A stretch of DNA of 32,000 nt. Origin: Candidatus Odinarchaeota archaeon (GTDB lineage Archaea; Asgardarchaeota; Odinarchaeia; Odinarchaeales; Odinarchaeaceae). The translations under genes and the position numbers were made by a program. The stretch lies in assembly GCA_038826135.1 (NCBI GenBank), contig JAWBON010000001.1, positions 1 through 32,000 of the forward strand, written 5' to 3'. The notes under the pieces were generated by a model, which saw nothing but the letters and a program-made list of their open reading frames with translations, made no database searches and was not told the DNA's origin. Positions 21,911-31,781 of this stretch are shown here, in pieces. How positions within the stretch are numbered: position 1 is the first letter of the stretch; each line of letters begins with the position of its first letter.

Positions 21911-23428
21911 ATGAACCTCAACGTTAAGATATGTTTCGATGAATCTCATAATGAGGGAGGGCGGCTTAACACAACCTACACTGGTTTAAAAGAGCTGCTT
22001 GAAAAAAACGGGTTTGAATGCGTGTCGTTAACAGATTTCCCCATAACATACGATAAACTAAAAAAATATAATACCCTTGTTATAGCCGGCCCCGACATGT
22101 CTAAGTTCAGACCATCTGAAATAAATGATATTTTAAAATATGTGAGTGATGGCGGGAGTCTTGTTTTAATGTCGGATGCTGGCGGTGACAGCGGGCATAT
22201 GACTAACTTAAACAGAATAGCTCAAACTATAGCCTTCCAGTTTAACGCTGACCAAGTAATCGACCAGAAGTCAAACTTAGGTGTTGAAACCGTGCCGATA
22301 CTTGACCAGATAACGCCTCATGAAATAATGCGTGGTGTAGCCTCCGTCTCCTACAGAGCCGGTTGCAGTATAACAGTTACAGGGGAAGCCCTGATACTTC
22401 TTAAATCCAACCAGACTTCAAACCCTCCTAACGCGCCTATAATAGTGTTAGCTAAACACGGTGAAGGTAAAGTTTTAGGTATTGGAACATACGAGATATT
22501 CAGAGATAGACTACTAGGCGGAATAAACGCGAAATACCATAGCAATCTAGCTTTAAACATATTTCAATACATGTCAGTGTATGGGGAACCGGCTGAGGGG
22601 GAGGGAATAGTAATCGAGGAAATCCATGAGGAGACCAGTCCGTTAATAAAGGAATTAGCTCAAATCAAAGATGCTACGCAAATATCCGGCGAGTCTAAAA
22701 CTCAAGCTGAGAGTAGAATAGAGGAGGCTAAAATAACACCGTTAAAAGAGTCTCCGAAACGTAGAGAGCAGGAAAACCTGCTAAGAGAGTTATCTGAAAA
22801 CGTCACCAGTGTTTCAACCATGATAAAAGAACAGGTTTACAATCTATCAGATCTTCATGAAAAAATAACTGTGGCTGAAAGAGAGCTTGAAAACATAAAC
22901 TCAACTATTAAAAACTACCGTTTAAACGAACTTTATGATAACATAAATAATATTAATACAGCTTTTCAGAAAATCGGTGAGGACACAAACACCCTGCTGA
23001 AAGATATGGATAATTTGAAAAAGCATCTTGAAACTATTAAGTCAACTCAAGATGAATATAATACAACCGCAGCCGAGTTATCTAAAAACATTAAATCCGC
23101 TATAAACACTAGCAGCGATAAATTAATTAAAAACATTGAAGCCGGGTTTAACCGTGTGGGTAAAATAAGTCAAGAGCTGAAAAATCTAATTCCAGAAACT
23201 GTGAGAAACATTTTTCAAACCTATCAATCAGAGTTTCTAAACACCCAGGTGAAGTTGATTGAAGGATTAGAGGAGCGGTTAACTGAAAAAATAAATAAAC
23301 TTTTAACAGAGTTTTCAAAGCTGAAACCAGTAGAGGAGACGGGTAAAACCCCGGTTTCTAAAGAAGCTGAAGCGGCTGCTGAGAAACCTAAGGTTAAGAA
23401 AGCGGTGAAAAAACGAAGCCCTAGTTAA
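21911..23428 (+). CDS. GIFT/DUF4350-like (IFT52-like) domain fused to a long coiled coil
   Basis: ICFDESHNE, LVIAGP...F...EI..I.KYV..GGSL and GKVLGIG in residues ~6-222. Heptad-rich residues ~285-470. No TM or signal peptide. Confidence 0.8.
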   Translation: MNLNVKICFDESHNEGGRLNTTYTGLKELLEKNGFECVSLTDFPITYDKLKKYNTLVIAGPDMSKFRPSEINDILKYVSDGGSLVLMSDAGGDSGHMTNLNRIAQTIAFQFNADQVIDQKSNLGVETVPILDQITPHEIMRGVASVSYRAGCSITVTGEALILLKSNQTSNPPNAPIIVLAKHGEGKVLGIGTYEIFRDRLLGGINAKYHSNLALNIFQYMSVYGEPAEGEGIVIEEIHEETSPLIKELAQIKDATQISGESKTQAESRIEEAKITPLKESPKRREQENLLRELSENVTSVSTMIKEQVYNLSDLHEKITVAERELENINSTIKNYRLNELYDNINNINTAFQKIGEDTNTLLKDMDNLKKHLETIKSTQDEYNTTAAELSKNIKSAINTSSDKLIKNIEAGFNRVGKISQELKNLIPETVRNIFQTYQSEFLNTQVKLIEGLEERLTEKINKLLTEFSKLKPVEETGKTPVSKEAEAAAEKPKVKKAVKKRSPS

Positions 23429-27115: not shown

Positions 27116-27233
27116 TAGAGGTCCTCCTTCGACTAACAATATTAAATAGGATTAATTATTTAAATGATTTCAATCATTATACTTGTAAAGTGTTGCCAGC
27201 TACCTGCTGATAAGCTTAAAGTTGTGGGTTCTA

Positions 27234-27848
27234 ATGTCTAGTGAAGAGAATAATAGTGGACGTAAGTCCACGGTTAATAAGTTAAGAGAATATCTTGCTA
27301 TATCCGGTGTCGGTGAAATAGCTAGACGCTACTTTGTTATGAACGCGTTTGACGGTGTTCTGACAACTCTGGGAGTAATAATAGGGGCGTCCTCGACTAG
27401 TTCAATAAACACTTTTTTCATTATCAGCGCGGTTCTAGGCGGAGCTATTGCTATGGCTGTATCCGGTGTATCAGGAGCTTATATGGCTGAGAAAGCGGAG
27501 AGGGAGCGTGAATTCGGTGAGCTTAAAAAAGCATTGATAAGTGATTTGAAAGGCTCTATTCATGAAAAAGCTTTAAAGTTCGCCTCCCTCTATGTGGCGG
27601 TGGTGGATGGAGCGGCGCCTTTCATATCCTCTATTATAGTCTTATCCCCCTTCTTCGTTGCCCATATAGGTTTAATACCGCCTTTAATAGCGTTAATCAT
27701 GTCAATTATAGTAACCACTATCTTCCTTTTCACATTAGGCTCCTACTTGGCTAAAATATCTAAAACTAATATTCTAATTTCAGGATTAAAAATGGTTTTA
27801 GCAGGTGTTATAACAGCGGTAATAATATTTCTGGTAAGTTTACTGTAA
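27234..27848 (+). CDS. VIT1/CCC1-family membrane protein (putative Fe/Mn exporter)
   Basis: RRYFVMNAFDGVLTTLG, AMAVSGVSGAYMAEKAE and a five-TM pattern. Confidence 0.88.
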   Translation: MSSEENNSGRKSTVNKLREYLAISGVGEIARRYFVMNAFDGVLTTLGVIIGASSTSSINTFFIISAVLGGAIAMAVSGVSGAYMAEKAEREREFGELKKALISDLKGSIHEKALKFASLYVAVVDGAAPFISSIIVLSPFFVAHIGLIPPLIALIMSIIVTTIFLFTLGSYLAKISKTNILISGLKMVLAGVITAVIIFLVSLL

Positions 27849-27988: not shown

Positions 27989-29197
27989 ATGGAATTAAAA
28001 TCGCTGGATGAAAAAACTCTTTTAGAAAGGGCTAAAAAACATATTTTTTCAACAGGTATAGGTGATGCTGCTTCAAGGCTGTGTCGTGAAAATACAGCTT
28101 ACGGGCTTGCTAAAATTCAGCTCGTCCAGGAGGAGTATGGTTTCGAGCCTTCAGCTACATTTATATCAACTCCTGATGAGACCGTCACTAGAAATGTTGA
28201 GAGATGGCAGAATGGTATAGGCTATGGTGGTAAAATTAGTTGGGGTGAAGGCTCTGATAAAATAATTTTCTTAGATGTTAAACCTAATTGTTGTGGAACA
28301 CTTGTAGGAGGGTTAGATGAGTTACCTGAGCCGGCGTATATTATCAAACATCTTTACAAGCTTGAATCGAAGGATTTTATTATTGACGGGATACCTGTTA
28401 AATGGGATTTTAATGTCGGGAACCATTTTATCGATGTTTTTAAAACATCTCCAGGGGCTAGTGTAGATTTACCTGAATATGTTTTTATAATTCATTCATC
28501 AGCCCCTGAGCTTAAAAGTGAAACACCTTTAGGTATGGGGCTGTATTATAGTAAAAGCCCTAGTTTAAGCCGGATTATGAAGACTGTTAAAACAAAATTC
28601 GGGGACGCTAAAATAGTTTTAGACGGTGATGCTGAAGCATATTATGATTTCTACAAGCTCTCTGAGCGTTTCTCCGAGCAGAAGAGGCTGCTGGCTGCTA
28701 AAGAGATATTCGGTGATTTTAAGCTGATCTCTAGTAAGACTCATCAGGGTTTATTAAACTTTAATGAGGCGGTTTTAGGTTGTCATTATTCGGATGATAC
28801 TGGTGGCGTACTGTACCCTGTTACTTTAAGACCTGATTTACCGGCTTATCTTATTGAAGCTAAAAAAAGTTTTTCGAAAAACATGTTAGAAGCCTTAGGA
28901 TTCTTTAATCGAGCTGAAGAGTTGGGTGTTTTAAACAGGCTTCTATCATTCAATTGTGTACCTCACGGGGGTGGATATAGTTTTCCAGACATGGTTACGG
29001 TGAAAGATATTATTAATATTCGTGGTGAAAGATACTTTGTTATGGAGCTTCAAAACGAGTTAGGGTTAAAGATTTTTAACAACCCTGGTGAGTTACAGTT
29101 CATCTACAGGGGGCGTCAGGTGGTTATCAGCTCTGTTGAATTGGAATTAATCGAGTTAAAAGCTAAGCTTATACCGGAATACGTGTTGAAATTATAA
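27989..29197 (+). CDS. Divergent RtcB-like protein
   Basis: RtcB-like motifs in the expected order: PD, D...NCCG, GNHF, IHSS, THQ and PHGGG. Confidence 0.65.
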   Translation: MELKSLDEKTLLERAKKHIFSTGIGDAASRLCRENTAYGLAKIQLVQEEYGFEPSATFISTPDETVTRNVERWQNGIGYGGKISWGEGSDKIIFLDVKPNCCGTLVGGLDELPEPAYIIKHLYKLESKDFIIDGIPVKWDFNVGNHFIDVFKTSPGASVDLPEYVFIIHSSAPELKSETPLGMGLYYSKSPSLSRIMKTVKTKFGDAKIVLDGDAEAYYDFYKLSERFSEQKRLLAAKEIFGDFKLISSKTHQGLLNFNEAVLGCHYSDDTGGVLYPVTLRPDLPAYLIEAKKSFSKNMLEALGFFNRAEELGVLNRLLSFNCVPHGGGYSFPDMVTVKDIINIRGERYFVMELQNELGLKIFNNPGELQFIYRGRQVVISSVELELIELKAKLIPEYVLKL

Positions 29198-29262: not shown

Positions 29263-29673
29263 ATGATGAGTAGCGGTTCTAGTATTGTAAGCGATATAAG
29301 AGATATACCGGGAAGCTCTTTTAAAATCCAAATAGAGAAAAAACCCAGCTCAGCTTTAATCAGAATATTACGCGGTTTGAAGGTGACAAAGGAGATTGAG
29401 ATTGAACGAGGGGAGTTAACCAAGAATCGGGTTGTCACAATCATTCAATCCGAATTATTTATGCCTATCTCTCCTTTCAAAATTATGAAAATTGTTGAAG
29501 AGCTTTTCAAAAATATTGAAGATAAAGAAAAACAGGCCGCCTCCTTGGAATCTCAAGTAACCCCTATGGAAGGTTCTCCACCCACTCCTGAAAAAGAAGT
29601 GGTTAAAGAAGCTGAGCAATCTACTTCGGAGGCCTCTGCTAGCAGCGATGTGAGTGAAAATAAACCCTGTTGA
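29263..29673 (+). CDS. Hypothetical protein: small globular domain plus acidic low-complexity tail
   Basis: 136-aa ORF with a GTGGTGG leader, co-directional with the RtcB-like gene. Confidence 0.65.
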   Translation: MMSSGSSIVSDIRDIPGSSFKIQIEKKPSSALIRILRGLKVTKEIEIERGELTKNRVVTIIQSELFMPISPFKIMKIVEELFKNIEDKEKQAASLESQVTPMEGSPPTPEKEVVKEAEQSTSEASASSDVSENKPC

Positions 29674-31547: not shown

Positions 31548-31781
31548 TTAAGGTCTCTTCCACTGATTATATGCTAGTTGAATATCCCTGCTGGTTACGG
31601 TTTTTCTCTTGGAATGGATTGATAATTCACCTGCTCTTTTAGCTATTTCTAAACCTATTTCCTCAAGTATTTTACCCAGCTCACTAGCAGCTTTCTCAGA
31701 AACTCTTTCAACTTTCGCTTTTCTTATTAACCTATCTAATGGTGCTAACGGTATTATTCTCTCAGCTTTCTCTTTCGGCAT
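31548..31781 (-). CDS. Archaeal histone (HMf-like fold)
   Basis: IPLAPLDRLIRK..ERVS...L...LEE...EIA..A......RKTV...DI.LA, with a GGTGA RBS. Confidence 0.95.
   Translation of the reverse strand: MPKEKAERIIPLAPLDRLIRKAKVERVSEKAASELGKILEEIGLEIAKRAGELSIHSKRKTVTSRDIQLAYNQWKRP

Follow-up and report, generated by a model that had tools for sequence, protein, structure and literature searches.

A short RtcB-fold protein of an Odinarchaeial genome belongs to a separate family of the RtcB superfamily

The gene and its product

The short RtcB-fold protein described here is encoded at positions 27989–29197 of the forward strand in a 32,000-nucleotide stretch of DNA, the window analysed in this work, from a Candidatus Odinarchaeota archaeon (GenBank assembly GCA_038826135.1, contig JAWBON010000001.1, positions 1 to 32,000). 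According to the list of open reading frames (ORFs) and exact codon translation the gene is complete, with an ATG start and a stop codon inside this range, and its product comprises 402 amino acids. An initial annotation, drawn from the sequence, had proposed an RtcB-like protein with a modified active site, and all motifs and residue numbers quoted there agree with the exact translation, at a level of conservation far above chance. The protein is a member of a distinct family inside the RtcB superfamily, sister to RtcB itself, and its identification draws on 869 homologues, an AlphaFold2 model and a match to the RtcB fold with a Z score of 21.6. The nearest named relative belongs to Candidatus Odinarchaeum yellowstonii, with 78% identity. 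Codon differences relative to two Odinarchaeial orthologues are mostly synonymous (146–147 synonymous against 85–97 non-synonymous), demonstrating purifying selection on the gene.

Overall fold

The AlphaFold2 model, computed from a 31-sequence alignment, is confident, with a predicted local distance difference test (pLDDT) value of 92.9 and a predicted template modelling score (pTM) of 0.92. Searching the Protein Data Bank (PDB) with Foldseek returned RtcB entries for all of the top 13 matches, each with a probability of 1.00. A structural search against representatives placed RtcB of Thermus thermophilus (2epg) at the top (Z 21.9, root mean square deviation (rmsd) 3.3 Å over 300 residues) and scored the next fold at Z 4.1. 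RtcB of Pyrococcus horikoshii in complex with GMP and Mn (4dwq_A) aligned over 313 residues with Z 21.6 and an rmsd of 3.3 Å. Ten RtcB entries in total score between Z 19 and 22, and the next fold scores Z 3.8. Matches to chlorite dismutase, DyP and coproheme decarboxylase (Z < 4.2) were dismissed as a common beta-sheet arrangement. The modelled fold is thus RtcB-like and nothing else, bearing out this part of the initial annotation.

Active site residues

In RtcB, metal site M1 is formed by His234, His329 and Cys98 and metal site M2 by Cys98, Asp95 and His203, with His404 attacking the alpha-phosphate of GTP; guanine is read by Lys480, which contacts O6, and Glu206, with Phe204 among the further guanine contacts, and the phosphates are contacted by Asn202 and Asn330 (PMC9745838). 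The 5′-OH strand is held by Arg238, Arg190 and Gln194, the 5′-OH itself being contacted by Asn202 (PMC8051266). These residues were located in the short RtcB-fold protein with hhalign, by alignment of a 210-sequence family profile (effective number of sequences, Neff, 6.0) with 25 Asgard RtcBs, and the P. horikoshii numbering was transferred via an intein-free Odinarchaeial RtcB. Conservation is given throughout as counts from 210 diverse relatives, and all motifs lie on the forward strand.

The alignment is significant over residues 140–252 (Prob 82.5%, E 9.8e-6). This segment pairs N145-H146-F147-x-D149 of the G-N-H-F-I-D stretch (28418–28435) with N202-H203-F204-x-E206, and H169, which opens the H-S-S-A-P-E stretch (28493–28510), with the M1 ligand His234. 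At its end H252 is paired with the M1 ligand His329 and, as a result, Q253 corresponds to Asn330 (H252-Q253, 28742–28747). The remaining elements follow in co-linear alignments, each weaker. These equate P62-D63 with P64-Asp65 of the PDxH motif (P62-D63-E64, 28172–28180; a weak sub-region alignment, in which the histidine of the motif is replaced by Thr65), C102-G103 with Cys98-Gly99 (D96-V-K-P-N100-C101-C102-G103, 28274–28297), P-H326-G-G-G-Y with A-His404-G-A-G-Arg408 (P325 to Y330, 28961–28978) and K401, the penultimate residue, followed by leucine and the stop codon, with Lys480 (29189–29191). A divergent subfamily of ca. 370 residues supports the same register, since its profile finds P. 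horikoshii RtcB as best PDB match (E 0.005) in three ordered segments, again pairing the cysteine, the histidine of GNHF and the histidine of PHG. The broad 210-sequence profile was needed for these results: a narrow profile (A1) reached E 0.023 at best in hhalign, single-sequence and narrow-profile PDB searches recovered RtcB at E 0.17 at best, and hhalign with the -glob option gave no meaningful alignment. A NiFeSe-hydrogenase match in the narrow PDB searches (E 0.03) was dismissed as chance.

On the evidence of these alignments, the counterparts of all three M1 ligands (C102, H169 and H252) are kept, H146 is securely assigned as the histidine ligand of M2, and of the nucleotide contacts Asn202, Phe204 and Lys480 are represented by N145, F147 and K401. 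H326, in the place of His404, is the predicted nucleotidylated histidine. Conservation follows the same pattern, with H146, H169, H252 and H326 each present in 210/210 sequences, F147 and G329 in 208/210, N145 in 206/210, C102 in 205/210 and D63 in 203/210, while position 401 is occupied by lysine in 169 and arginine in 15. The earlier claim that the principal His, Cys and Asp residues retain their RtcB order therefore stands for the His/Cys core, but is doubtful for Asp95. Its proposed counterpart D96 is aspartate in 133/210 sequences (30 N, 22 E, 12 G) and competes with N100, conserved in 198/210, which lies opposite Asp95 in the profile alignment of the ca. 370-residue subfamily with RtcB but not in the weaker sub-region hhalign. 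Likewise, the double cysteine that had been pointed out is real in this sequence (C101-C102) but is no feature of the family, where the C101 position is alanine in 120/210 and cysteine in 25/210.

Three departures from RtcB had also been named at the outset, and all of them hold. The asparagine of the HN motif is replaced by glutamine (Q253, 177/210), the arginine of HGAGR by Tyr330 (184/210), and the GSRG motif is lost, with Pro173 aligned to Arg238 beside a conserved acidic residue, Glu174 (183/210). The helical segment of RtcB that carries Arg190 and Gln194 found no aligned counterpart in the profile alignment. As far as the aligned residues indicate, the clamp by which RtcB grips the 5′-OH strand is lost in the short RtcB-fold family. 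The family possesses, in turn, arginines of its own at positions 72, 233, 281, 308, 348 and 374, several of which are invariant.

Family identity and distribution

Neither Pfam nor NCBIfam gave any match to the 402-residue protein even at E ≤ 10, with PADLOC and PHROGs likewise returning none, and PF01139, the family model of RtcB, matched 0/34 divergent relatives at E ≤ 1. Among the 120 listed of the 869 homologues retrieved by a word-indexed search, those that carry a name are termed “hypothetical protein” or “uncharacterized”. An exhaustive hidden Markov model (HMM) search with the family profile across 1.84 billion representatives yielded 338 clusters (50% identity) at E ≤ 0.001, and none of the 150 of these that were listed combines the length of canonical RtcB (ca. 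480 residues) with an end-to-end match. Literature searches found neither a description of this family nor a family model for it, although the 2016 RNA-repair survey of Burroughs and Aravind may mention it.

Relatives occur in at least 235 species in one scan of species-representative genomes, with 46–56% identity to the query. Archaeal carriers include Odin-, Hel- and Hodarchaeota, Bathyarchaeia, Methanocellales and Nano-/Woesearchaeota, and bacterial carriers include Spirochaetota, Planctomycetota, Clostridia, Chloroflexota, Atribacterota and Desulfobacterota. The gene is patchy among Asgard archaea, being present in 19 of the 61 genomes sampled, and is kept by genome-reduced DPANN archaea. 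Viral contigs yielded no relative. In a maximum-likelihood tree of 81 members, 38 bacterial rows are separated from 43 archaeal ones by a branch with 99% support, and the archaeal side holds only two sequences labelled bacterial, one of which is almost the same as that of a Bathyarchaeon and has probably been mis-binned. This distribution, together with the split of the tree, marks the family as old and slowly evolving rather than as a recent Odinarchaeial paralogue. The initial annotation had spoken of a paralogue, but the family is not lineage-specific and forms a separate, ancient lineage with archaeal and bacterial clades.

Much more divergent relatives are encoded in four Asgard genomes (G026, G036, G015 and G003; E 1e-25 to 1e-45) in frames of 420–448 residues, and a subfamily of ca. 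360–380 residues, recovered in the global search, retains the four histidines and the cysteine. In two metagenomic proteins from independent assemblies (P0135, 743 residues, and P0270, 748 residues) an N-terminal APH/thiamine-kinase/CotS-like kinase domain is fused to the RtcB-like domain. Further fused forms (at least 705 residues) were absent from a search for longer homologues, which is weak evidence.

The canonical ligase of the same genome

A canonical RtcB is encoded elsewhere in the genome, on contig 16 (G000:C16:2439-5360; L128:240-3161), as a 973-residue ORF that matches PF01139 at 569 bits. Its frame contains an intein that carries a LAGLIDADG domain and is inserted exactly ahead of the metal-bridging catalytic cysteine (...GYDIN, intein, CGVRV), so that this cysteine is the +1 splice residue. 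The PF01139 matches of four other Asgard genomes (G035, G044, G026 and G003) also break near this position of the model, and their frames are of similar length (973–1015 residues). Archease, as had been noted, is absent from the window; its gene is located on a third contig (C5). Canonical RtcB was found in 59 of the 61 Asgard genomes sampled, including 27/27 of the high-quality ones. With both rtcB and archease present elsewhere in the genome, the short RtcB-fold protein is an enzyme additional to the ligase that splices tRNAs in this organism, and is neither that ligase nor its replacement.

Genomic neighbourhood of the family

Neighbouring genes were clustered across 81 genome loci and, independently, across a set of 80 metagenome loci. 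The most frequent association is with a gene for an HD-domain protein of ca. 190–230 residues, which is directly adjacent in 32/81 genome loci and co-directional in 31/32 of these. It precedes the short RtcB-fold gene in 19 of the 32 loci and follows it in 13. Gaps range from -4 to 114 nt in 30/32 loci, with outliers of 303 and 550 nt. The adjacency is seen in both the archaeal and the bacterial clade, and in 14/80 metagenome loci the gene is again adjacent and co-directional. The profile of this HD partner matches Bacillus subtilis YpgQ (5dqv, E 9e-23) and YedJ, and the metal motif H...HD...H...H...D is retained. In the window, the HD partner gene is not adjacent to the short RtcB-fold gene. 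Searches of this genome and of five others without an adjacent copy gave weak generic HD matches only, and the partner is therefore considered accessory.

In two independent lineages no more than 3 kb separates the short RtcB-fold gene from canonical rtcB and/or archease. At a Spirochaete locus (L105:4215-7995) it stands with the HD gene tail-to-tail with an archease-rtcB pair, and in one Bathyarchaeial lineage (L060:3741-9780; also L149, L150 and L152) it is flanked by archease and by canonical rtcB, the latter 2.8 kb upstream. PolX, which combines Pol beta and PHP domains, occupies four of the directly neighbouring (±1) positions tallied over the 81 loci. These are most likely the co-directional genes of ca. 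580–600 codons situated ca. 0.47–0.53 kb downstream in four Planctomycetota loci (L096, L099, L118 and L119), a placement that suggests, for this lineage, a connection with the processing of DNA ends. TetR-type regulator genes occur upstream in Planctomycetota loci. No conserved biosynthetic neighbours were found in the locus tally.

Comparison with known systems

The closest known system is RtcB itself (PF01139; P. horikoshii 1UC2, 4DWQ and 7LFQ; T. thermophilus TTHA1785, 2EPG; human RTCB), with which the fold is shared over ca. 310 aligned residues and the catalytic elements follow in the same order, with counterparts of Cys98, His203, His234, His329, His404, Asn202, Phe204 and Lys480. The short family is, however, ca. 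80 residues shorter, has a helical N-terminus and remains invisible to PF01139 even at E 10. It carries Pro/Glu at the position of Arg238 and lacks Arg190 and Gln194, while Arg408 is exchanged for Tyr330, Asn330 for Gln253 and Asp95 for either a variable aspartate or a conserved asparagine. It also occurs on top of canonical RtcB, rather than instead of it.

The extra bacterial RtcB paralogue RtcB2 is a normal member of PF01139. The ribosome-repair module formed by RtcB2 and PrfH (PMC9304027, PMC9223846) likewise places a second RtcB-type enzyme beside the housekeeping one, often with a fixed partner gene, but the short family falls outside PF01139 and is paired with an HD phosphohydrolase instead of a release-factor homologue. 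The HD phosphohydrolases of YpgQ/YedJ type (5DQV, 3GW7) are the nearest known relatives of the partner and not of the protein in the window. YpgQ is a Mn-dependent (d)NTP diphosphatase of low catalytic efficiency (PMC8177086). The HD partner is no orthologue of it, scoring under the NCBIfam cut-offs.

Proposed function

The short RtcB-fold protein probably performs RtcB-type chemistry on a substrate other than that of RtcB. Mn2+ and a nucleoside triphosphate (NTP), probably GTP, would be bound by the enzyme and a covalent adduct of His326 with the nucleoside monophosphate (NMP) would be formed. The NMP would then be passed to a terminal phosphate, most likely that of a nucleic-acid end bearing a 3′-phosphate or 2′,3′-cyclic phosphate, giving a pyrophosphate-linked (capped or activated) intermediate that may be resolved by an acceptor unlike that of RtcB, or may never be sealed. 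In many other lineages the adjacent YpgQ-like HD diphosphatase could act on the nucleotide or on the pyrophosphate-linked product, and because Odinarchaeia are without this partner, the enzyme is proposed to work alone here. Taken as a whole, that is, an RtcB-sister enzyme which transfers an NMP from histidine to a terminal phosphate and differs from RtcB in its acceptor or in the absence of sealing, this is the interpretation that we favour on balance, with modest confidence. A nucleic-acid end is favoured as substrate because the gene is at times linked to rtcB/archease and PolX and is retained in genome-reduced DPANN archaea. Altered chemistry and the capping or healing of nucleic-acid ends, which the initial annotation put forward, are likewise proposals. 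A bolder extension, in which the family constitutes the catalytic half of an undescribed archaeal and bacterial end-modification system, a terminal phosphate on RNA, DNA or another phosphorylated substrate being nucleotidylated without sealing to a 5′-OH strand and the cap removed or processed by the HD diphosphatase, with Odinarchaeia possessing the capping half only, is offered tentatively and is rather doubtful at present.

Several observations weigh against nucleotidyl transfer to a nucleic-acid end. Outside residues 140–252 the sequence similarity to RtcB is marginal (E-values 0.002–0.04). The counterpart of the M2 ligand Asp95 is uncertain, D96 being variable and N100 conserved, so that the handling of the beta- and gamma-phosphates of the NTP could suffer, and D149, the counterpart of Glu206, is variable as well (114 D, 32 N, 25 E, 12 G). 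The median isoelectric point (pI) of the family is 6.4, compared with 8.6 for RtcB, and this, like the one fusion to an APH-type kinase, fits a substrate that is not a nucleic acid. The linkage to rtcB/archease is confined to two or three lineages, and an orthologue of the HD partner, when sought in this genome, produced weak generic HD matches only.

The retained catalytic core raises the question of whether the enzyme is, after all, a true ligase of 3′-phosphate and 5′-OH ends in RNA or DNA, gripping the 5′-OH strand through other residues and acting on a particular substrate, damaged rRNA or tRNA for example. Part of that core is N145, which corresponds to the very asparagine that contacts the 5′-OH nucleophile in RtcB. 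The invariant arginines of the family would be on hand for the grip, and the gene has rtcB/archease nearby in a Spirochaete and in Bathyarchaeia and PolX next to it in Planctomycetota. We nevertheless regard such a ligase as unlikely, given that Arg238, Arg190 and Gln194 have no counterparts, a conserved glutamate sits beside the Arg238 position, the median pI is weakly acidic and the ca. 80 missing residues include most of the helical region that bears Arg190 and Gln194. The weakly acidic pI, unlike the basic one of RtcB, could also be explained if the same His-NMP chemistry were directed at a phosphorylated small molecule or a phosphoprotein, producing a nucleoside diphosphate-linked intermediate or a phosphodiester. 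This would suit the kinase fusion seen in two independent assemblies, the loss of nucleic-acid-binding residues and the TetR-type regulators upstream in Planctomycetota. The fusion is, however, a single rare cluster, to which the search for longer forms added no others, conserved biosynthetic neighbours were not found, and retention in DPANN archaea with linkage to rtcB/archease and PolX fits information processing better than metabolism, leaving such a substrate a little less probable again than a ligase.

RtcB has 2′,3′-cyclic phosphodiesterase as a side activity. The short RtcB-fold protein might thus be a metal-dependent hydrolase and nothing more, for instance a 2′,3′-cyclic phosphodiesterase, which would dispense with nucleotidylation and use H326 as a general base. 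An intact M1 site with an uncertain M2 aspartate would be in keeping with this, as would the exchange of Asn330, a gamma-phosphate contact, for glutamine and the variability of the guanine-reading D149. Yet the elements that in RtcB serve GTP and His-GMP, namely N145, F147, K401 and the P-H-G-x-G loop, show nearly the same strict conservation as the metal ligands, and this would be needless for plain hydrolysis, which makes such an explanation improbable. A catalytically dead RtcB-like scaffold or regulator is very unlikely because of the invariance of the active-site residues, the four histidines being retained in every sequence and the cysteine in nearly all, across archaeal and bacterial clades. 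Transfer of an NMP from His326 to a terminal phosphate accordingly remains the reading that we prefer.

To our knowledge, no enzyme family other than RtcB joins 3′-phosphate ends by way of a His-GMP intermediate, and the RtcB fold counts as that of a single family. A second, strongly conserved family with the RtcB core, which no public family model names, would widen the RtcB superfamily and, if the proposed chemistry is true, point to an unrecognised chemistry of phosphate ends in anaerobic archaea (Asgard, Bathyarchaeia and DPANN) and many sediment bacteria.

Other features of the window

The gene immediately upstream (27222–27848, forward strand) encodes a Fe/Mn transporter of the VIT1 family (Pfam PF01988) and takes the same place in two further Odinarchaeial loci (L046 and L047). 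The Bathyarchaeial locus L060 likewise has a VIT1 gene, at a distance of four genes. A tie between this neighbour and the presumed Mn2+ requirement of the enzyme is speculative. Downstream, on the same strand, a 136-residue ORF with an acidic tail and no assigned family (29263–29673) holds the same position in both of these Odinarchaeial loci. The content of the window is archaeal, with genes for a histone, a TrmB regulator and orotidine 5′-monophosphate (OMP) decarboxylase, and the sequencing runs listed are all of hot-spring metagenome DNA, none of RNA. A GIFT-domain protein that contains a coiled coil is encoded at 21911–23428, and an archaeal histone at 31548–31781.

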